The translations under genes and the position numbers were made by a program. The notes under the pieces are model-generated. The model was not told the DNA's origin and ran no database searches. It worked only from the letters and a program-made list of their open reading frames with translations. From Corallococcus sp. AS-1-6 (lineage in GTDB: Bacteria > Myxococcota > Myxococcia > Myxococcales > Myxococcaceae): DNA of 64,000 nucleotides. Location of the stretch: the NCBI RefSeq assembly GCF_020037015.1, contig NZ_JAIQDE010000007.1, forward strand, positions 243,886 through 307,885. Direction: 5' to 3'. Within the stretch, counting starts at the first letter, position 1; every line of letters starts with the position of its first letter. Below, in pieces: positions 5,543 to 64,000 of the stretch.

Positions 5543-8212
5543 ATGGCGCGTACACGTCCCGTGGATCCCCCGCTGCGGCGGGATGTCCGGCTCTTGGGCC
5601 GGCTGTTGGGTGAGGTGTTGGTGGAACAGGAGGGGCAGGCCCTGTTCGACAAGGAGGAGGAGGTCCGCCACCTGGCCATCCAGCGCCGGCGGGGGCCGGT
5701 GGCCGGACGACGCGCCGCGGCGGCGGAGCTGGCGGCGGTGTTGCGGCGGCTGCCGTCGGAGCAGGTGGAGCCGGTGCTGCGCGCCTTCTCCGTCTACTTC
5801 CAGTTGGTGAACCTGGCCGAGCAGCACCACCGCATCCGCCGCGCGCGGGCCCACGCGAGCCCCACCTCCGCCCGGCCCCAGAAGGGGTCGCTGGAGGCGA
5901 CGCTGCTGACGCTGAAGGCCGCGGGCGTCAGCGCCGACAAGGTGCGTGAGACGCTGGGGACGCTGAAGGTGACGCTGACGTTCACCGCGCACCCGACCCA
6001 GGCGGTGCGCCGCACGCTGCTGGAGAAGCTCTACCGGCTGGCGCAGTTGTTGGAAGAGCGCGACCGCTGCGCGCTCACCCCGCGCGAGTCCGCCGCGAAC
6101 CTCACGGCCATGCGCGAGGAGATCACCGCGCTGTGGCAGACGGACGAGCTGCGCCGCGAGCGCCCCACGGTGGGCGACGAGGTGAAGAACGTCCACTGGT
6201 ACGTGGAGGAGATGCTGTCGGAGCCGGTGGCCCGGCTGCCGGAGGCGCTGGACTGGGCCTTCGAGCGCGCCTACGGCGAGCCCCTGGGCGCGCTGGACAC
6301 GCCCGTGCGCGTGCATTCGTGGGTGGGCGGCGACATGGACGGCAACCCGCTGGTGACCCCGGAGGTGTTCGCGGACACGCTGCGCGCGCACCGCGCCCGG
6401 GGGCTGCGGCTGCTGTTGCGCGACGTGGAGCGGCTGGGCGGGATGCTGTCGCAGTCGGAGCGGCACGCGCGCCCCACGCAGGAGCTGGAGCGCTCGCTGG
6501 ACGAGGACGCGAAGGCGCTGCCGGAGGTGGCCAGGCAGCAGGGGCCGCGCACGCTGGGTGAGCCGTGGCGCCGCAAGCTGCGCTTCATGGAGGAGCGGCT
6601 GACGCTGGCGCTGGAGCACGTGCTGGCGCGGCGCGAGGGGAGGGAGTCCACGCTGCCGGCCGGGGCGTACCGTTCACCGGAGGCGCTGGGGGATGACCTG
6701 GCGGTGCTGGAGCGGTCGCTCTTCGCGGCGAGAGCGGAGCACGCGGGCCTGCGCGAGGTGCGCCGCATGTCCGAGCGCGTCCGCGCGCTGGGCCTGGGCC
6801 TGGGCGAGCTGGAGGTGCGGGCCCCCGCGGAGGACGCGGTGAGCGCGGCGGCGTCCTTCCACGGCGGACCGGCCCCCACCGAAGGCGGCAAGCGGCTTCT
6901 GGAGGTGCTGGCGAAGCTGCGCGAGGGCCAGGACGAGGGCGGCGAGTCCGTCTGCCGCACGCTCATCCTCTCCATGGCCTCCACCGCGGACGACGTGCTG
7001 GCGGCCTTCCAGTGCCTGAAGCACGCGGGGCTCTGGGACAAGGCGCGGCAGTGCGCCACCGTGGACGTGGCGCCCCTCTTCGAGCAGTTGGGCGCGCTGG
7101 ACGGCGGGCCGGACGTGCTGCGCCAGCTCTTCGCGCACCCGGAGTACCGCCAGCACCTGAAGGGCCGCGGGGTGCAGGAGGTGATGGTGGGCTACAGCGA
7201 CTCCGGCAAGGAGGTGGGACTGCTCGCCGCGAGCGCCGCGCTGTACCGCGCCCAGGTGGCGCTCACCCAGGTGGCGGATGAGCACGACGTGCCCCTGCGC
7301 CTGTTCCACGGCCGAGGGGAGACGGTGGCGCGCGGCGGCGGCCCCGCCCAGACGGCCATCCTCGCGCTGCCGCCGGGCACGGTGGCCGGCGCCTACAAGG
7401 CCACCGAACAGGGCGAGGCGATGGACCACAAGTACGCGCGCCCGGAGCTCACCCAGCGCACGCTGGAGCTGGTGGTGGGCGGCGTGCTGCTGCACACGCT
7501 GGACGCGCAGCCGCGCCCGTCGCCGGAGGACGAGTCCGCCTTCCGCGCCGCCTTCGACGCGCTGGCGGAGTCCGGCCGCAAGGCGTACCGCGCGCTCGTC
7601 TGGGAGGACCCGCGCTTCGTGGAGTTCTTCATGAAGGGCACGCCGGTGGATGAAATCTCCGCGCTGCCCATCGGCTCGCGCCCCAGCAAGCGCAAGGCGG
7701 GCGGGCTGGACACGCTGCGCGCCATCCCCTGGAGCTTCGCGTGGACGCAGACGCGCGCCATCCTCCCGGCCTGGTACGGCGTGGGCAGCGCGCTGGAGGA
7801 GTCCGCGGCCACGCCGGAGGGCGCGGCGCTCCTGCAGCGCATGTACAAGGAGTGGCCCTTCTTCCGCGCGGTCATCGACAACGTGACCATGGTGCTGGCC
7901 AAGACGGACATGGCCATCGCGGCGCGGTACGCGAAGCTGGCCCCCGCGGCCACGCGGCCCCTGTGGCTGCGCATCCAGCAGGAGCACTCGCGCACGCGCC
8001 GCGCGGTGAAGTCGCTCACGGGCGAGGCGAAGCTTCTGGACAACAACCCGCAGCTCCAGCGGAGCATCGCGCTGCGCAACCCCTACGTGGACCCCATGTC
8101 CTTCCTCCAGGTGGAGCTGCTCAAGCGCAAGCGGGACGGGGACGCGGAGTGCGACCGGCCGCTCCTCCTGGCGCTCAACGGCATCGCTGCGGGCATGCGG
8201 AACACCGGTTAG
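5543..8212 (+). CDS. ppc: phosphoenolpyruvate carboxylase
   Basis: Hallmark PEPC motifs are VGYSDSGKEVG, FHGRGETVARGGGP and LRNPYVDPMSFLQVELLKR. The C-terminus is ...MRNTG. Length is about 890 aa. The start is the ATG at 5543, one codon after the GTG at 5540. Confidence 0.95.
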   Translation: MARTRPVDPPLRRDVRLLGRLLGEVLVEQEGQALFDKEEEVRHLAIQRRRGPVAGRRAAAAELAAVLRRLPSEQVEPVLRAFSVYFQLVNLAEQHHRIRRARAHASPTSARPQKGSLEATLLTLKAAGVSADKVRETLGTLKVTLTFTAHPTQAVRRTLLEKLYRLAQLLEERDRCALTPRESAANLTAMREEITALWQTDELRRERPTVGDEVKNVHWYVEEMLSEPVARLPEALDWAFERAYGEPLGALDTPVRVHSWVGGDMDGNPLVTPEVFADTLRAHRARGLRLLLRDVERLGGMLSQSERHARPTQELERSLDEDAKALPEVARQQGPRTLGEPWRRKLRFMEERLTLALEHVLARREGRESTLPAGAYRSPEALGDDLAVLERSLFAARAEHAGLREVRRMSERVRALGLGLGELEVRAPAEDAVSAAASFHGGPAPTEGGKRLLEVLAKLREGQDEGGESVCRTLILSMASTADDVLAAFQCLKHAGLWDKARQCATVDVAPLFEQLGALDGGPDVLRQLFAHPEYRQHLKGRGVQEVMVGYSDSGKEVGLLAASAALYRAQVALTQVADEHDVPLRLFHGRGETVARGGGPAQTAILALPPGTVAGAYKATEQGEAMDHKYARPELTQRTLELVVGGVLLHTLDAQPRPSPEDESAFRAAFDALAESGRKAYRALVWEDPRFVEFFMKGTPVDEISALPIGSRPSKRKAGGLDTLRAIPWSFAWTQTRAILPAWYGVGSALEESAATPEGAALLQRMYKEWPFFRAVIDNVTMVLAKTDMAIAARYAKLAPAATRPLWLRIQQEHSRTRRAVKSLTGEAKLLDNNPQLQRSIALRNPYVDPMSFLQVELLKRKRDGDAECDRPLLLALNGIAAGMRNTG

Positions 8213-41857: not shown

Positions 41858-41940
41858 AGTACCCTACCTGGAGAGATTCGCCAGTGTTCCGTGCGAAAAC
41901 GTACGGATTCCGAGGGGTTGTGCTTGACGCGAGGCGCCGC

Positions 41941-42603
41941 TCAGACGACGCGGTTGCGCAGCTCCTCGAAGAATCCCACCCACAACTGCCACATCTCCTC
42001 GGCGCCGCGCGTGATGGTGGCCAGCTCCGCGTCCGTGTACTGGAGGCCCACCGTGTGGCCGGCCGTCTCCACGTGGTCCGGCTCCTGCTTCACGTGGATG
42101 TCCACCCAGGGCAGGGCCTTGAGGCCCGTGGTGCGGCGCACCAGCTTGCCCAGCTTGGCCACCATGGTGAGGTCCGCCACCTCCGTGCCGTAGAGGAAGC
42201 CCAGGCCCGTGAGGTGGCTGTCCGTGGAGCGCTGGTAACCGTCGATGAGCCGGCGCGTCGCGGGCGTCATGTCCGCCTCGGACACGCCCGCCTTCGTGAA
42301 GCCCGCGTCCGTCATCGTCTGGATGAAGAAGCGCTCGTGCGCCCTCGCCGGGTCTCCCTCGCCCACCTCCTGGTTGAGGATGTGCGTCACCGCCGTCTTC
42401 ATCTCCATCTGCGGACAGACGGCGATGAGCTTGCCCAGGAAGGTGGGGAAGTAGTGCAGGGGGTGCCACCACTGACCCAGCACCATCTCCGCCTGTTCGC
42501 GGCTGAAGGCCTTCTCATCCACCACCTCGAAGAACCGGTGCTTGATCAACTGCTCTCGGTGGGAGTTCTTCGCCAGTGCCGCCTCGATGGTCTGGTTCCG
42601 CAT
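41941..42603 (-). CDS. iron-containing redox enzyme of the haem-oxygenase-like fold (CADD/PqqC/TenA-like di-metal oxidase family)
   Basis: Two E...H metal-ligand blocks are ILNQEVGEGDPARAHERFF and VKQEPDHVETAGH. It has about 220 aa and an all-helical composition. GGAGG sits 5 nt upstream of the ATG. Confidence 0.8.
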   Translation of the reverse strand: MRNQTIEAALAKNSHREQLIKHRFFEVVDEKAFSREQAEMVLGQWWHPLHYFPTFLGKLIAVCPQMEMKTAVTHILNQEVGEGDPARAHERFFIQTMTDAGFTKAGVSEADMTPATRRLIDGYQRSTDSHLTGLGFLYGTEVADLTMVAKLGKLVRRTTGLKALPWVDIHVKQEPDHVETAGHTVGLQYTDAELATITRGAEEMWQLWVGFFEELRNRVV

Positions 42604-42822
42604 TGCCGCCTCCAGGTGGGTCCAAAAGGGCTGGGTCGGCGTTTATCACAAAGCAGGACTGAGATTCTTGGAAATGTAGAAAGACAAGTTCAACACGACT
42701 ACGTGGTTTGCCGTCAGTGTGGAACGTGCAGGCAGGCGAGGGTGGGCTGTTCGGCGTGGGGGCTGACAGCCTACAGTTGGAAAATCGGCATTTTCTCCCT
42801 GGCCCCCTTGTACGGAAGACGC

Positions 42823-43707
42823 ATGACCCTGTTCCGGCACCCTGAAGATCGCATCCCGGTCCTGATGTTCCTTGGCGTCTTCGCGCTCGACATGACGGTG
42901 TTCCTCACGGCGCGAAGCTGGTGGGTACCGGTGCTGTGGTTCGGGCTGGGCATCATCCCCAAGGGGTGGATCTGCTCGTGGAACCACCACCACCAGCACC
43001 TGTCCTTCTTCAAGCACGCGCTGCCCAACCGGCTCCTGGAGATCGTCTTCGGCTTCCAGACGGGCGTGACGTCGCAGGCGTGGTTCCTCCACCACGTGCT
43101 GGGCCACCACAAGAACTACCTGGACCAGTCGCAGGACGAGTCGCGCTGGAAGCGGGAGGACGGCTCGACGATGGGCGAGGTGGAGTACTCGCTGGGCACG
43201 GCGCTGACCGCCTACCCGCGCGCGTTCCAGGTGGGCCGGAAGCACCACCCCAAGGCGCTGCGCACGTTCGTGGTGATGGCCGCGCTCCAGGTGGTGCTGC
43301 TGGCGGGCCTGTTCTGGGTGAACCCCTACAACGCGCTCTTCGTGTTCCTGCTGCCCATGATGGCGTCGCTCTACGTGACGACCTGGGCCACGTACTTCCA
43401 CCACGTGGGCCTGGACACGGCGAACCACTCGGAGGCCTCGTACAACATCCTCCACAAGGGCTACAACCTGATGACGGGCAACCTGGGCTACCACACCGCG
43501 CATCACACGCGGCACGGCCTGCACTGGTCCAAGCTGCCGGAGCTGCACGCGCAGTTGGCGCGCGACATCCCCGCGAACCTGTACCGCCAGCCGGGCATCC
43601 CGTTCGTCTGGCGCGGCTCCGAGGAGAAGCTGGTGCTGAGCGAGCACGAGGTCGCCGCACTCACCGGCGGGCCCGTGGAGGGCCGCGGGGAGAAGCTGGC
43701 CGCCTAG
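42823..43707 (+). CDS. membrane fatty-acid desaturase / hydroxylase-family di-iron enzyme
   Basis: His boxes are WNHHHQH, HHVLGHH and HTAHHTRH, with a further FHHVG. Four TM segments are present. The start is ATG 42823. The 607-aa ORF in the track is artefactual upstream of this. Confidence 0.8.
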   Translation: MTLFRHPEDRIPVLMFLGVFALDMTVFLTARSWWVPVLWFGLGIIPKGWICSWNHHHQHLSFFKHALPNRLLEIVFGFQTGVTSQAWFLHHVLGHHKNYLDQSQDESRWKREDGSTMGEVEYSLGTALTAYPRAFQVGRKHHPKALRTFVVMAALQVVLLAGLFWVNPYNALFVFLLPMMASLYVTTWATYFHHVGLDTANHSEASYNILHKGYNLMTGNLGYHTAHHTRHGLHWSKLPELHAQLARDIPANLYRQPGIPFVWRGSEEKLVLSEHEVAALTGGPVEGRGEKLAA

Positions 43708-59772: not shown

Positions 59773-60270
59773 TCAGGCGGGCGGCGCGCGGCGGCGGCGG
59801 GGCAGCGGGGCGAGCGCCACGGGCGTTGCTTCCGCGGCCACGTCCTCCTGGCGCACGGCCTCCACGTTCACCACGCGCACGCCGTCGGGTTGGACGGGCA
59901 GCCCCAGGGTCTCCACGAAGAGGCGGTAGCTCTCCTCCAGGCGGCGGTGCAGCGCGCTGAAGGTCTGGTGCGCGGTGCCGGGCATGTCCTCGGTGTAGGT
60001 GAAGTACCAGCGCAGCTCGTCCAGGCGCCCGTAGAAGTGGTCCACCACCGCCTGCTCCTGCTCGGTCAGGTGGATGAGCTGGGCGAAGGCGCCGTCCGCG
60101 TAGCGCGAGGCCACCGTCTCCACCAGCGGGTCGCGGCTGCGCAGGCGGGAGAAGAGGAGGAACATCTCCTCCCGGCGCGCGGCCAGCCTGCGCATGATGC
60201 CGGCGGCGTCGAGGGCGAGCAGGTTGCGCACGCGCGCGGAGGTTTCGTCGGCCTTCTTGCGGCGAGCCAT
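59773..60270 (-). CDS. hypothetical protein
   Basis: The 165-aa frame has an ATG start at 60270. The ORF track extends to 60948 through non-coding-like sequence. It is convergent with the desaturase, 3 bp away. Confidence 0.5.
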   Translation of the reverse strand: MARRKKADETSARVRNLLALDAAGIMRRLAARREEMFLLFSRLRSRDPLVETVASRYADGAFAQLIHLTEQEQAVVDHFYGRLDELRWYFTYTEDMPGTAHQTFSALHRRLEESYRLFVETLGLPVQPDGVRVVNVEAVRQEDVAAEATPVALAPLPRRRRAPPA

Positions 60271-60408
60271 GGTGCGACACAGCCTACCGTCAGTGGCACC
60301 CCTCCACGCCAGGGGTTGCCCTCTCCTTGGAGAACCGGGCGGCCGAGGCCAGGCCCGCCTCACGGCGATGCGGCGCGGCGGGAGAGCGGTTGTTACGGTG
60401 GGGCCACC

Positions 60409-61035
60409 ATGGTGCTCAAGATCGTCCAGGCGGGGGAGCCGGTGCTGCGCCAGCGCGCGCGGGAGCTGACCCCGGAAGAAATCGGCAGCGAGGACACGCG
60501 GCGGCTCATCCAGTTGATGCGCGACACGATGCGGGACGCGCCCGGCGTGGGGCTCGCGGCACCCCAGGTGGGCGTGGGCCTGCGGCTGGTGGTCATCGAG
60601 GACCGCGCCGAGTACCAGGCCGGCGCGTCGCCTGCGGACCTGGCGCTGCGCGAGCGCTCGCCGGTGGCCTTCCACGTGTTGATCAACCCGAGGCTGGTGG
60701 TGGAGGACCCTACGCCGATGGAGTTCCACGAGGGCTGCCTGAGCGTGAACGGCTTCGCGGCGCTGGTGGCCCGGGCGCGCGGCGTGCGGGTGGAGGCGCT
60801 GGGTGAGCACGGCGAGCCGGTGACGGTGTCCGCGCGCGGCTGGTACGCGCGCATCCTCCAGCATGAATTGGATCACCTGGACGGCACGCTCTACGTGGAC
60901 CGCATGGAGACGCGCAGCCTCACGACGCAGGAGAACCACCGCCGGCACTGGCTGGGCAGGAGCACGGCCCAGGTGCGCACGGCGCTGGGGCTGCCGGAGC
61001 AGACCCCTTCGCTTCCCCGAAAGGACCCGACATGA
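60409..61035 (+). CDS. def: peptide deformylase
   Basis: The three signature motifs are GVGLAAPQVG, EGCLS and HELDHLDG. Confidence 0.9.
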   Translation: MVLKIVQAGEPVLRQRARELTPEEIGSEDTRRLIQLMRDTMRDAPGVGLAAPQVGVGLRLVVIEDRAEYQAGASPADLALRERSPVAFHVLINPRLVVEDPTPMEFHEGCLSVNGFAALVARARGVRVEALGEHGEPVTVSARGWYARILQHELDHLDGTLYVDRMETRSLTTQENHRRHWLGRSTAQVRTALGLPEQTPSLPRKDPT

Positions 61036-62099
61036 GCAGCAAGCTGTTCTCTCCCTTGAAGCTGCGGGACATCACCCTGCGCAACCGGGTGGTCGTCTCG
61101 CCCATGTGCCAGTACTCGAGCGACGACGGTTTCGCGAACGAGTGGCACGTGGTGCACCTGGGCAGCCGCGCGGTGGGTGGCGCGGGGCTGGTGGTGACGG
61201 AGGCCACGGCGGTGGAGCCGGAGGGCCGCATCTCGCCGCAGGACCTGGGGCTGTGGAAGGACGCGCACGTGGAGCAGTTGGCGCGCATCAACCGGTTCAT
61301 GCACCAGAACGGCGCCGCGTCCGGCGTGCAGCTCGCGCACGCGGGCCGCAAGGCCTCCACGCCCCGGCCGTGGGACGCGGGCAAGCGCGTGGAGCCGGAG
61401 CACGGCGGCTGGCAGGTGCTGGGGCCCACGACGGAGGCGTTCGAGGAGGGCTACCCGGTGCCCGCGGCGCTGGACGAGGCGGGCATCCAGCGCATCGTGA
61501 AGGCGTTCGCGGACGCGGCGGTGCGCGCGAAGGCCGCGGGGTTCCAGGTCATCGAGCTGCACGCGGCGCACGGCTACCTGCTGCACGAGTTCCTGTCGCC
61601 GCTGTCGAACAAGCGCACGGACCGGTACGGCGGCACGTTCGAGAACCGGACGCGCTTCGCGCTGGAGGTGACGCGCGCCGTGCGGGCGAAGTGGCCGGAG
61701 TCGCTGCCGCTCTTCATGCGCATCTCCGCGACGGACTGGGTGGAGGGCGGCTGGACGCCGGAGGACTCGGTGGCGCTGGCGAAGCTCGTGAAGAAGGAGG
61801 GCGTGGACCTGCTGGATTGCTCGTCGGGCGGCGTGGTGCCGAACGCGAAGATCCCGGTGGGGCCGGGCTACCAGACGCAGTTGGCGGAGCAGGTGCGCAA
61901 GGAGGCGGGCCTGCTCACGGGCGCGGTGGGGATGATCCGCTCCGCGTACCAGGCCGAGCACATCCTGGCCACGGGACAGGCGGACGTCGTCTTCCTGGCG
62001 CGCGAGCTCTTGAGGGACCCGTACTGGCCGCTGCGCGCCGCGAAAGAGCTGCGCGCGGACGTGCTGTGGCCGCACCAGTACGAGCGCGCGAAGAACTGA
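61032..62099 (+). CDS. NADH:flavin oxidoreductase, Old Yellow Enzyme family (YqjM/NamA-like)
   Basis: The N-terminus is LKLRDITLRNRVVVSPMCQY. HAAHGYLLHEFLSP and further OYE blocks are present. The ATG overlaps the def stop as ATGA. Confidence 0.9.
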   Translation: MSSKLFSPLKLRDITLRNRVVVSPMCQYSSDDGFANEWHVVHLGSRAVGGAGLVVTEATAVEPEGRISPQDLGLWKDAHVEQLARINRFMHQNGAASGVQLAHAGRKASTPRPWDAGKRVEPEHGGWQVLGPTTEAFEEGYPVPAALDEAGIQRIVKAFADAAVRAKAAGFQVIELHAAHGYLLHEFLSPLSNKRTDRYGGTFENRTRFALEVTRAVRAKWPESLPLFMRISATDWVEGGWTPEDSVALAKLVKKEGVDLLDCSSGGVVPNAKIPVGPGYQTQLAEQVRKEAGLLTGAVGMIRSAYQAEHILATGQADVVFLARELLRDPYWPLRAAKELRADVLWPHQYERAKN

Positions 62100-62121
62100 T
62101 GCGCGCGGAGGGGACGCCGGT

Positions 62122-63015
62122 TCAGTCGAGGAACCGGCGGTCCCACCCCATGAAATCGTCGTCGGAAAAGTTGGCCGGGCGCACGCTGGCGTGGAAAGCC
62201 CAGGGTTCCAGGACACGGGCCAGCTCCCGGTAGGCAAGAAGCGGTTGGTCTGGACCGCCAGCGAGGGGCTCGGGGCCCAGGATGACGACGGCCCTGGACG
62301 CGTCGAGAGCTTCCACGGTGGTTCCGGGCGCGTGCAGTTGAGAGCGCAGGAAGTCCACGCCGCCCATGGCGCTCAGCGATGGCTCACCGATGAAGGTCAT
62401 CCAGTGCGGGACACGTAGGCGGGTGCCAATCTCAAAGGAAGTCCGGTCGAAGCTCTGGACGTCTACTCCGGGGAAGGGGGCTAGCAGGGGAACGAGGTCC
62501 GACATCACAGTCCCTGAGTTCAGGTATCCGCTGACCGACAGCCCCGCGTGCCCGGAACTGAACGGCAGTGGTGCAGCCAGAGCCAGTGCCAGTTCGCGGA
62601 CACGGAGGGCACCGTGAGCATTCACCCATGACAGGGGCACGATGAAACGAACCGCTGTCACGGGACCCGGATCGTGACGGAATATGGCTGCATGGATGTC
62701 CTTGCCCAGGTATTCGAACTCGAACTTTTCCGGGTAGGGCGCATCATTGGTGAGCAGGACAGAGGGCGCGACCGGATGATGGAGCTTCGTGTGAATGAAT
62801 GCCCATCCGGCGTCATCCAGTTCACGCGGTTCGTCGTCGTCCCCGATGTAGTAATTGAGTGCACGGATGCCGATGGCATCGACAAAGTATTGAAGAGACA
62901 GTGCGATGGATTGAGAGACCTCTGCCGTCGGTCTGGGAAGATAGAAGCAGATGCTTACATCCTCCTGCGTGACGGCCCTGTTCCTGCGCATGACCTGCAG
63001 TCTTGGGGATGTCAT
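62122..63015 (-). CDS. hypothetical cytoplasmic protein in lower-GC islet; candidate immunity protein
   Basis: The 297-aa frame is translationally coupled to the upstream lipoprotein gene (TGA-ag-ATG). GC content is visibly lower than the flanks. Confidence 0.6.
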   Translation of the reverse strand: MTSPRLQVMRRNRAVTQEDVSICFYLPRPTAEVSQSIALSLQYFVDAIGIRALNYYIGDDDEPRELDDAGWAFIHTKLHHPVAPSVLLTNDAPYPEKFEFEYLGKDIHAAIFRHDPGPVTAVRFIVPLSWVNAHGALRVRELALALAAPLPFSSGHAGLSVSGYLNSGTVMSDLVPLLAPFPGVDVQSFDRTSFEIGTRLRVPHWMTFIGEPSLSAMGGVDFLRSQLHAPGTTVEALDASRAVVILGPEPLAGGPDQPLLAYRELARVLEPWAFHASVRPANFSDDDFMGWDRRFLD

Positions 63016-63017
63016 CT

Positions 63018-63818
63018 TCAGAGACCTGCTCCGAGATATGGCTGAACCAGCATCACTTCGTCCAGTTTGAAGGCCCTGAGATACAGGTCACCTTGGTTGC
63101 TTCCATGGTAGGGATGTCCTGCAGGATATTTCCGCCATTGGGCCTGTCGCGTCAGGTCTACACACGGGAACTTGAAGTCATAGACGGCTTCAACCTGCGC
63201 CGGGTCGCCCGTGTGAAGCACCACGTCGGGAACAAGAGTCCCTTTCAACTCTCCCAGACTGCCATGCTGCCGGATGCGAGCCACTTGCGCGGGTGACAGC
63301 CAGATCGTCTTCCCGCTGTCCAGTTCGTAGCGATACGTGGGCTCCAGACTGAACCCACCCGGACGGAGTTCTGTCAGCCTCTCCTCCGCGCACTGCAATG
63401 CGACCCGGTGCATCTCCTCCCCGAGCTTCATGGCGCGGGTGATGGTCTGGCCTTGTGCATCGCGGACCAGTTCGTTGCACTCCTGCGGCGTCGGGCTCCG
63501 GGTTCCGAAGTTCGCGAGGATGACCGTTGTTCGCGCCTTGTCCGCGCACTCTTCCAGCGCTTCTGTCACCTGCTGCTTCAGCGCGGCATCCAGGAGCTTC
63601 ACGGCCGCCGCGGCGGAGCTTCCCGTCGTCGCGAACGTCCGCACGGCCCTGGGAACCACCGCTTCCTCTCCCGCGACCTGGGCACAGTAGGCAGGCTGCG
63701 TCCTGCAGGAGTTCGTCGCGCTGTCGAAGTCGTACTGACTCCGCCTGTGCGCGCCTCCGCATGCCTGCAAGAGCACCGAAGCGGTGAGGAGCCATGGCCA
63801 CCGTTGACTCATCCTCAC
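63018..63818 (-). CDS. lipoprotein in lower-GC islet; candidate lipoprotein toxin (SitA-like architecture)
   Basis: The lipobox is [12 protein letters not shown]. The GTG start has AGGAAGG at 5-nt spacing. Length is 266 aa. Confidence 0.6.
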
Positions 63819-63855
63819 GAACGCCTTCCTTCCGAAGTCCGCATAAGCTTCCCCT

Positions 63856-64000
63856 CATGCTGACCGAGGTGCAGGCGGGACCCTATACCGTGCGTGGCGT
63901 GTCCGTGGGCGGCGTGTACACGTCGCTCCTGGTGCCGGAGCTGGGGGTGCTGCTCGACGCGGGCATCCCCATCCGCTCCTTCGCCACCACGGACCGCATC
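63856..64000 (+). CDS. 5' fragment of a gene, probable MBL-fold metallo-hydrolase (partial at window edge)
   Basis: The product [42 protein letters not shown]... resembles N-termini of metallo-beta-lactamase-fold hydrolases. It is truncated by the window end. Confidence 0.4.

Follow-up and report, generated by a model that had tools for sequence, protein, structure and literature searches.

A probable lipoprotein toxin and TsiV-family immunity pair at a fixed, variable chromosomal locus of Corallococcus

Two adjacent genes near the end of a 64,000-nucleotide stretch of Corallococcus sp. AS-1-6 DNA (contig NZ_JAIQDE010000007.1, positions 243,886 to 307,885; here called the window) probably constitute a polymorphic toxin-immunity module of the SitA/SitI kind that is delivered by outer membrane exchange (OME), a reading to which we give a probability of roughly 0.68. 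The first gene encodes a 266-amino-acid (aa) lipoprotein with a predicted nuclease domain, and the second encodes a 297-aa protein of the TsiV immunity family. An initial annotation of the window, made from its letters, had proposed a lipoprotein toxin with its immunity gene directly behind it. That order of functions is now strongly supported by the TsiV match of the second protein, the PD-(D/E)xK fold and motif of the first, the restriction of named sources to myxobacteria, and the hypervariability of both proteins among close relatives.

Both genes lie on the minus strand. The toxin gene (63018 to 63818) starts with a GTG at 63818, with an alternative in-frame ATG two codons on at 63812, and stops with a TGA at 63020 to 63018. 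A 2-nt spacer, read from the sequence at 63016 to 63017 on the same strand, separates this stop from the ATG of the immunity gene at 63015 (62122 to 63015), and the two genes are translationally coupled across this gap. The lengths of the two proteins, the L-L-Q-A-C lipobox of the first, and the 2-nt distance to the second are all as the initial annotation had given them.

The 297-aa protein has no signal peptide and, by its profile match, is a TsiV/DUF3396 immunity protein: it aligns with Pfam PF11876 TsiV at an E value of 7.3e-40 over profile positions 6 to 271 of 271. This family, formerly DUF3396, is described as "Type VI immunity for VRR-NUC." In Salmonella bongori, TsiV proteins neutralize TseV effectors with one-to-one specificity, and the TseV proteins are PD-(D/E)xK VRR-Nuc nucleases (PMC9635880). 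By analogy, the 297-aa protein would neutralize a cognate toxin. It also has a weak sequence match to PA0821 (7drg; E 0.03). Among its 120 closest homologs (E < 1e-59), the named ones come from Corallococcus, Hyalangium, Cystobacter, Archangium, Pyxidicoccus, and Myxococcus, a single genome often having more than one, and the NCBI name for such homologs is "type VI immunity family protein." The earlier statement that neither protein belongs to a family that could be named thus fails for the second protein and stands for the lipoprotein, which has no Pfam or NCBIfam family.

The lipoprotein carries its presumptive toxin domain at residues 76 to 266 (63021 to 63593, minus strand). AlphaFold2, supplied with an alignment of 108 sequences, models residues 75 to 266 at a per-residue confidence (pLDDT) above 90, and the model supports a PD-(D/E)xK fold with the canonical motif arrangement for the C-terminal ~190 residues. 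In this model, D198 starts a predicted strand (199 to 202) and D214-x-K216 ends the next one (209 to 215). The candidate catalytic motif (63171 to 63230, minus strand) consists of P197-D198 (D198 encoded at 63227 to 63225), H202, D214 (63179 to 63177), F215, and K216 (63173 to 63171). P197-D198, H202, and D214-F215-K216 are invariant in the 108 sequences, and further invariant or near-invariant positions in the family are H137, Q242, and Y246. The spacing of D198...D214-F-K216 resembles that of the TseV3 motif, D230...D245-V-K247 (PMC9635880). Going by the modeled fold and motif, the lipoprotein is probably a nuclease that cuts DNA and, by extension, a toxin to cells. Toxin and immunity protein thus match in kind, the latter coming from a family with a known ability to block PD-(D/E)xK nucleases like the one next to it.

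Sequence libraries gave no family for this domain. The lipoprotein returned only noise from Pfam and NCBIfam, and its 108 homologs matched no nuclease family in Pfam; for the window protein, VRR_NUC (PF08774) gave no match at E ≤ 1, and the 25 families reported across the 108 members do not include it. Sequence searches of the PDB with the single lipoprotein and with a profile found nothing relevant, and a Foldseek comparison of the predicted structure to the PDB gave no significant match.

The N terminus of the lipoprotein is a type II signal peptide (63759 to 63818, minus strand) in which basic residues and a hydrophobic stretch precede the lipobox L-L-Q-A-C, whose cysteine is Cys20 (63761 to 63759). 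This order is compatible with the PROSITE-type lipobox rule, and Cys20 is at least 90% conserved among the 108 homologs. Sorting to the outer membrane in M. xanthus follows the rule that Lys is not at +2 and Ala is not at +7 (PMC5562445). Residues +2 to +7 of the window protein (G-G-A-H-R-R) satisfy this rule, and the predicted location is the outer membrane. A tether of residues 21 to 75 (63594 to 63758, minus strand) follows and is predicted to be disordered, with a pLDDT below 55 for residues 1 to 70 of the AlphaFold2 model. It contains the motif D32-S-A-T-N-x-C38-R-x-x-P42-x-x-C45-A-x-x-x-G50-x-E52, of which D32, C38, P42, C45, and G50 are invariant among 28 aligned sequences and ≥90% conserved among the 108. 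Six conserved cysteines outside the lipobox (C38, C45, C91, C114, C143, and C219) would fit an extracytoplasmic protein.

The lipoprotein family is small and, as far as its sources are named, confined to myxobacteria of the Myxococcaceae/Archangiaceae type. A set of 5.8 billion proteins yielded 380 homologs, nearly all of 250 to 290 aa and aligning end to end, and an exhaustive hidden Markov model search of 1.84 billion proteins found only 254 representative clusters. Named sources among the 380 are myxobacteria only (e.g., Corallococcus, Myxococcus, Pyxidicoccus, and Archangium), while many other members come from metagenomic contigs. When these matches are pooled with the top 120 for TsiV, all named sources are Corallococcus, Myxococcus, Pyxidicoccus, Archangium, Cystobacter, Hyalangium, or Myxococcaceae. 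Public gene models in the family often begin at internal codons (194, 199, 208, or 250 aa), and such shortened models (P0001, P0014, P0017, P0018, and P0290 to P0293) drop the signal peptide and the lipobox, so that the lipoprotein nature of the product is hidden. By tblastn, the full 266-aa open reading frame (ORF) is intact in genomes with shortened models, e.g., C. coralloides KYC2213, and the cause is the choice of start codon rather than a frameshift.

The linkage between the two families is tight. TsiV lies directly after the lipoprotein gene in all of the approximately 15 loci examined, including 10 Corallococcus loci, M. xanthus DK1622, Pyxidicoccus, and an Archangium-like genome, and the two genes overlap by 1 to 4 bp in the homologous pairs of M. 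xanthus, Pyxidicoccus, and metagenomic contigs. The neighbors differ from genus to genus. The pair sits between a PLD-family gene and ppx in M. xanthus DK1622, between a tRNA-editing gene and a Wzy-type gene in the Archangium-like genome, and between two very large helicase-type genes in Pyxidicoccus sp. MSG2 (L083, 3691 to 13554). Its presence in unrelated neighborhoods across genera indicates that the two-gene module is the moving unit. Look-ups by exact protein sequence for P0016, P0088, and P0093, made for their genomic context, returned no record.

In the exhaustive search, the nuclease domain occurred in three architectures, of which the short lipoprotein is the common one. A second is represented by a metagenomic protein of 451 aa (P0141), whose N terminus matches TIGR02269, "SitA6 family polymorphic toxin lipoprotein," at 91.6 bits, against a curated cutoff of 85.75, and also matches Pfam DUF2380. 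Residues 261 to 443 of this protein are 52% identical to residues 76 to 257 of the window lipoprotein (E 1e-62), and the boundary of homology coincides with the edge of the confidently folded domain. In the third (P0155; 696 aa), the nuclease is preceded by a type I signal peptide and by 500 N-terminal residues of unrelated sequence. A TsiV gene follows both long forms with a 4-bp overlap (E 1e-58 for P0141 and 6e-34 for P0155). The tether region is the part that is swapped for other N-terminal modules, as in P0141, P0155, and P0152, and the remaining variants exchange the tether while keeping a lipobox or Sec signal. Since every N terminus keeps an export signal and a TsiV partner, the nuclease domain behaves as a portable, always-exported toxin module with dedicated immunity.

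To view the locus across the genus, reference genomes were scanned with the protein of the flanking gene for an old yellow enzyme (OYE)-type oxidoreductase, and eleven Corallococcus species or strains yielded the orthologous locus. The pair lies between the OYE gene and a metallo-β-lactamase (MBL)-fold hydrolase gene in C. coralloides, C. interemptor, C. exercitus (two strains), C. carmarthensis, C. aberystwythensis, C. terminator, and C. sicarius, and the same position is occupied in at least nine Corallococcus genomes besides the window. In Corallococcus sp. CA053C, the OYE locus holds two pairs in tandem (L010, 3781 to 7170), which look like a duplicated or stacked toxin-immunity array. Its copies are 61 to 63% (toxins) and 42 to 44% (immunity proteins) identical to those of the window.

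Corallococcus sp. RDP092CA, by contrast, has a clean empty site, as evidenced by blastn breakpoints and junctions: 19 bp separate the OYE stop from the hydrolase ATG. Comparison with this site defines a cassette of 1,737 bp in the window (62101 to 63837, no strand) that RDP092CA lacks. In RDP092CA (L004, 9378 to 11231), def, OYE, and the MBL hydrolase gene are codirectional, with a 4-bp overlap and a 19-bp gap, and by this arrangement look like a single operon. In the window (60409 to 64000), the opposite-strand cassette separates OYE from the hydrolase gene, and 38 bp remain before the hydrolase ATG. The initial annotation had read the position of the islet as consistent with an insertion and had asked whether related def-OYE loci lack the pair. 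The empty site supports an insertion, albeit not a recent or strain-specific one, and absence holds for RDP092CA, whereas the pair is present and hypervariable at this position in the at least nine other genomes.

A repeat search for direct or inverted repeats at the cassette ends found no target-site duplication and no terminal inverted repeats; a 10-nt repeat at 62050 and 62100 was considered as a boundary repeat and judged to be due to chance, as both copies are on one side. No integrase or transposase is encoded near the cassette, and a tblastn search of plasmids gave no match and hence no link to pMF1-type elements. An insertion mechanism based on a mobile element was rejected given the lack of boundary repeats and of a nearby integrase or transposase, and replacement of alleles by homologous recombination through the flanks appears preferable.

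Variation at the locus is concentrated in the cassette. Compared with C. coralloides KYC2213, the window shows 99.6% identity in its flanks (35 differences over 8,260 bp) and 83% in the cassette (293 over 1,740). The drop in identity starts no more than 15 bp past the OYE stop and ends in the N-terminal coding region of the lipoprotein. At the protein level, the flanking genes are 99.7 to 100% identical (OYE and def, 100%), the lipoprotein is 83.5% identical, and TsiV is 77.1% identical. The window thus belongs to a strain of the C. coralloides group, and both islet proteins are 100% identical to proteins of Corallococcus sp. AS-1-6. Synonymous divergence (dS) is 0.003 to 0.03 in the flanking genes, 0.39 in the lipoprotein gene, and 0.52 in the TsiV gene; synonymous sites approach saturation, and the flanks have their dS lowered by extreme codon bias, but the contrast with this conspecific strain, at least 13-fold, exceeds what saturation and codon bias alone would explain. 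The two C. exercitus strains repeat the pattern, with flanks that are 96 to 98% identical, toxins that are 80% identical, and immunity proteins that are 68% identical; one allele clusters with those of C. carmarthensis and C. aberystwythensis and the other with that of C. coralloides. No allele is common to two genomes; toxins reach at most 90% identity and immunity proteins at most 88%.

Within the proteins, variation peaks at toxin residues 221 to 266 (mean identity, 58%) and at TsiV residues 1 to 120 (56 to 59%). These two hypervariable segments are contiguous in the DNA, and the catalytic core is the best conserved part (80%). There was no sign of positive selection: the ratio of nonsynonymous to synonymous divergence (dN/dS) is below 1 in all genes and segments, with a range of 0.13 to 0.45 in cassette segments, and for the comparison with KYC2213 it is 0.25 for the lipoprotein, 0.28 for TsiV, and 0 to 0.34 for the flanks, where there are too few changes for the value to have meaning. 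These sequence patterns are best read as old allele lineages that would have been maintained and exchanged across species by recombination via the conserved flanks, and not as recent positive selection.

Base composition sets the islet apart as well. It is the lowest-GC part of the window, with a minimum of 0.558 at 62601 in 600-bp windows, approximately 4.4 standard deviations (SD) below the mean of the window (0.710; SD, 0.035). The toxin and immunity genes have GC contents of 0.615 and 0.628 and GC contents at third codon positions (GC3) of 0.711 and 0.738, whereas the three adjacent genes have GC contents of 0.715 to 0.719 and GC3 values of 0.93 to 0.98. Against a window median GC3 of 0.94 (approximately 40 coding frames), the islet genes are clear outliers, so the low-GC islet of the initial annotation is real. 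The annotation had taken this composition as fitting a horizontally mobile locus. However, low GC3 (0.71 to 0.81) is common to all Corallococcus alleles, and the copies in M. xanthus and the Archangium-like genome have GC3 values of 0.75 to 0.79, compared with 0.93 to 0.95 for their neighbors; in Pyxidicoccus, the lipoprotein gene has a GC3 of 0.76, and the single neighboring gene that was measured has 0.81. Since every allele and genus examined shows it, low GC3 is a stable property of the module rather than the mark of a recent arrival.

We propose the following mechanism for the module. Cys20 would anchor the lipoprotein in the outer membrane (inner leaflet), a flexible ~55-residue tether with a conserved two-cysteine motif would connect this anchor to the rest of the protein, and its C-terminal 190 residues would form a metal-dependent PD-(D/E)xK DNase (D198, D214, and K216). 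Cells with compatible TraA receptors would fuse their outer membranes by means of TraA/TraB, and the lipoprotein would pass to the neighbor, where the nuclease domain would enter the cytoplasm and cut DNA. The cytoplasmic TsiV protein would bind and block its cognate nuclease, such that clonemates survive and non-kin die. With diverged, old allele pairs kept and shuffled at one fixed locus, close relatives would carry nonidentical toxin-immunity specificities. OME is known to transfer outer-membrane lipoproteins efficiently, including a lipobox-mCherry reporter, and SitA1 and SitA3 homologs, reported only from traAB-bearing species, are present in C. coralloides (PMC5562445). TraAB-dependent delivery and the route of entry are suggested here by analogy with such toxins.

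The likeness to SitA/SitI lies in architecture and logic. The shared features are an outer-membrane-type lipobox, a C-terminal nuclease domain, a cytoplasmic immunity gene directly downstream in an operon, alleles that differ between close relatives, and an occasional tandem duplication. The named sources, all of them myxobacteria, may likewise be of the traAB type. The families SitA1/2, 3, 4, 5, 6, and 7 are reportedly the work of Vassallo et al. in eLife in 2017, Vassallo and Wall in PNAS in 2019, and Vassallo et al. in mBio in 2021. SitA1/2 and SitA3 have conserved N-terminal regions of 441 to 507 aa and total lengths of approximately 430 to 780 aa, and characterized SitA toxins enter the cytoplasm via long escort domains; the window lipoprotein, in contrast, has a disordered tether of ~55 residues. 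Also unlike the SitA/SitI loci, the pair keeps a fixed position in the chromosome and is not carried by a prophage, plasmid, or transposon, and its immunity protein is of the TsiV/DUF3396 family. SitA4 alleles that have been tested carry AHH nucleases, as do those of SitA6 (PMC8546572), and SitA7 is described only as nonmodular with a predicted DNase. SitA6 corresponds to DUF2380/TIGR02269, with a double-CXXCG immunity protein (PF09535) as partner. Like SitA6, the window toxin is a compact myxobacterial lipoprotein of ~200 to 300 aa with its immunity gene downstream, and P0141 fuses a SitA6-family N terminus to the window-type nuclease; it differs in having a PD-(D/E)xK rather than an AHH nuclease and in the family of its immunity protein. 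Another comparison is with nuclease colicins and CdiA-CT toxins, in which an exported nuclease must likewise reenter a target cytoplasm, immunity is adjacent, cytoplasmic, and allele specific, and the toxin C terminus is variable. Unlike these systems, the pair comes with no receptor-binding or translocation domain, lysis gene, or two-partner secretion, and delivery by membrane fusion is presumed.

M. xanthus DK1622 offers an indirect comparison with cataloged SitA loci. Its homolog (ABF89164; Q1CYS8), which the depositors labeled "putative lipoprotein," lies at 7,799,977 to 7,800,816. UniProt accession-order arithmetic from MglA (Q1DB04), which we take to be MXAN_1925, gives the locus tag MXAN_6321. 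The same tag is reached from gene order: nine genes downstream of the homolog, DUF2380 and double-CXXCG genes stand in succession, a pair that we infer to be the sitAI6 locus given as MXAN_6330 in Table S4 of Weltzer et al. 2026 (PMC13310138), where all DK1622 SitA loci are listed by family. This sitAI6 locus (L088, 19126 to 20529; CP000113, ~7.809 Mb; DUF2380 and Gmx_para_CXXCG, presumably MXAN_6330/6331) is 8 kb from the lipoprotein-TsiV pair, and DK1622 therefore has two distinct lipoprotein toxin modules as neighbors. A literature search on the DK1622 homolog or MXAN_6319 to MXAN_6324, and on DUF3396 in Myxococcus, found nothing.

Several points weigh against the OME toxin reading. First, the SitA family models tested in NCBIfam and Pfam, including TIGR02269/DUF2380, matched neither the window protein nor the DK1622 homolog nor any of the 108 members. 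Second, the probable MXAN_6321 does not appear on the DK1622 SitA list (PMC13310138), nor in its family 7, which consists of 598.5 and 6560; either the systematic search overlooked it or it was not counted as SitA. Nor is any DK1622 locus listed near 6321 paired with a gene of strain A06, although the M. xanthus-group homolog is widely conserved. Third, this homolog is at least 90% conserved over many strains, where a kin discrimination toxin would be expected to be more polymorphic. Fourth, with no long escort domain there is no known vehicle into the cytoplasm, and entry is the weakest step of the mechanism. Finally, the toxin role of the family is read from sequence and predicted structure. 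Accordingly, the SitA/SitI label of the initial annotation holds for architecture and logic and fails for membership, as neither a recognized SitA model, nor a long escort domain, nor a place on the DK1622 list was found. With moderate confidence, we place the lipoprotein family outside the six recognized SitA families, a judgment that for SitA4, 5, and 7 goes by the DK1622 list. As a separate observation, the P0029/P0275 cluster spans M. xanthus, M. virescens, and M. vastator at ≥90% identity, and one member sequence occurs on 90 contigs; the family seems far less variable in this group than in Corallococcus.

The conservation in the M. xanthus group is what would be expected of an enzyme that does not discriminate, and it lends something to an alternative that we consider unlikely, albeit the one that survives best: the lipoprotein could be a predatory or scavenging nuclease of the outer membrane or of vesicles, directed at prey or extracellular DNA, with the inhibitor serving self-protection and kin discrimination playing no part. 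A predicted outer-membrane lipoprotein nuclease in a predatory bacterium and a chromosomal, nonmobile context both agree with this idea. It leaves unexplained, however, why toxin and inhibitor diverge together, approximately 40-fold faster than their flanks between conspecific strains, why pairs occur in tandem, and why the nuclease is found fused to a SitA6-family N terminus with a TsiV of its own.

A different label for the pair already exists. Its strongest library matches are to PADLOC models, PDC-M20A for the lipoprotein (E 4.3e-124) and PDC-M20B for the TsiV protein (E 6.9e-94), both over the full length, and PDC-M20 in PADLOC-DB therefore comprises the same two protein families. PADLOC proposes phage defense by association only, as an unvalidated candidate, and a search of the available literature for PDC-M20 found no paper. 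As an abortive-infection or toxin-antitoxin pair, the TsiV-like partner would restrain the nuclease until phage infection released it. The Pyxidicoccus pair, in what looks like a defense island, agrees with such a role, and that neighborhood may account for the pickup of the pair by PADLOC; the two genes that flank the pair there encode a 1,407-aa HIT-DEAD/ResIII-SNF2-helicase-S24 peptidase protein and a 1,292-aa DUF8344-SNF2 helicase protein. Nevertheless, the nuclease has a lipoprotein or Sec signal in every architecture and would be exported from the compartment in which phages replicate, while the partner has no signal peptide and belongs to a family characterized as immunity to interbacterial toxins. 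Moreover, the neighbors are housekeeping genes in Corallococcus, M. xanthus, and the Archangium-like genome, and hypervariability of allele pairs among near-identical strains is a hallmark of interbacterial toxins. The signal peptide, the immunity family, and the population pattern all point to an interbacterial toxin, and we regard phage defense as improbable.

The immunity family also raises the question of whether this is an effector-immunity pair of the TseV/TsiV kind, fired by the single myxobacterial type VI secretion system (T6SS). TseV/TsiV pairs (S. bongori SPI-22 and Pseudomonas aeruginosa PA0822/PA0821; Hespanhol et al. 2022 eLife) likewise combine PF11876 immunity with a PD-(D/E)xK toxin directly upstream, the window toxin shares a superfamily fold and D...D-x-K spacing with TseV3, and myxobacteria use a T6SS in kin discrimination (PMC12077181). 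However, a cleavable lipoprotein signal would route the toxin through Sec and Lol and not through cytoplasmic loading into a T6SS. In place of a PAAR-like T6SS trafficking domain, the window toxin has this signal, and Pfam found no PAAR, VgrG, Hcp, or other trafficking domain in it or in the 108 members, which also lack a VRR_NUC match. No T6SS genes lie within 10 kb of the pair in any locus examined, and the lineage, Myxococcota, is different. A T6SS effector is accordingly very improbable. Equally slight is the chance that the pair is a decaying or inert remnant, a former toxin-immunity pair drifting under relaxed selection, as its depressed GC3, high divergence, and often shortened public toxin models (194 to 250 aa) might suggest, because tblastn finds both ORFs intact and full length in all loci examined, dN/dS stays well below 1 in every segment, the catalytic motif and cysteines are invariant, and the shortened models are start-codon choices.

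With the OME-delivered toxin as the preferred reading, a more specific version can be offered tentatively, at somewhat less than even odds. The pair may represent an additional, previously unrecognized OME toxin family in which a 55-residue Cys-loop tether stands in for the escort domain, entry is encoded in the tether or the nuclease domain, a TsiV fold otherwise known from T6SS effectors has been co-opted for immunity, and an old trans-species balanced polymorphism persists at a fixed Corallococcus site and not on mobile elements. If the OME toxin reading is right, the catalog of toxins in the myxobacterial "self-identity barcode" would be incomplete, lacking a compact lipoprotein nuclease family of Corallococcus, Myxococcus (DK1622, probably MXAN_6321/6322), Pyxidicoccus, and Archangium that at present goes under the names "hypothetical protein" and "type VI immunity family protein" or is listed as a phage defense candidate. 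The TsiV immunity fold would then be common to T6SS effectors and lipoprotein toxins, and association-based catalogs of defense systems, it should be cautioned, can take in interbacterial toxin modules. Having no long escort domain, the lipoprotein would be a simple test case for cytoplasmic entry by outer-membrane lipoprotein toxins. The Corallococcus locus is a natural experiment: its flanks are almost identical, sites with no pair and with two pairs both occur, and no fewer than nine allele pairs have diverged, which makes it suited to the study of toxin-immunity specificity and of balancing selection at kin recognition loci.

An OYE-type NADH:flavin oxidoreductase gene (61032 to 62099, plus strand), the conserved anchor of the comparisons, lies outside the module and is convergent with the immunity gene, and def overlaps it by 4 bp. 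On the other side, an MBL-fold hydrolase gene begins at 63857 (plus strand), divergent from the toxin gene, with 38 bp between the two start codons, and leaves the window at 64000. Orthologs in C. exercitus confirm the identities that the initial annotation had given to def, OYE, and the hydrolase (Pfam Pep_deformylase, Oxidored_FMN, and Lactamase_B_2). An imperfect hairpin with 17-nt arms and a 7-nt loop (62107 to 62147, no strand) spans the stop codon of the immunity gene, where that gene and OYE converge, and is a possible bidirectional terminator. Lacking a T-run, it escaped the terminator scan, and neither promoters nor terminators were called in 61.9 to 64.0 kb.

The sole other low-GC patch of the window has a GC content of approximately 0.60 at 42.3 to 42.6 kb in 600-bp windows. 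Within this patch (41941 to 43707), a minus-strand Haem_oxygenas_2 gene for an "iron-containing redox enzyme" (41941 to 42603; Pfam E 1e-27) lies beside a plus-strand fatty-acid desaturase domain (E 6e-29) in an ORF at 41884 to 43707. The patch was considered as a second toxin cassette (42.2 to 42.8 kb) and rejected on these contents. Finally, the minus strand at 59773 to 60300, between a fatty-acid desaturase gene and def, holds a conserved 165-aa ORF without a Pfam family, which lies inside a longer stop-to-stop frame in the window; its C. exercitus ortholog (L001, 13552 to 14049) is an annotated gene.

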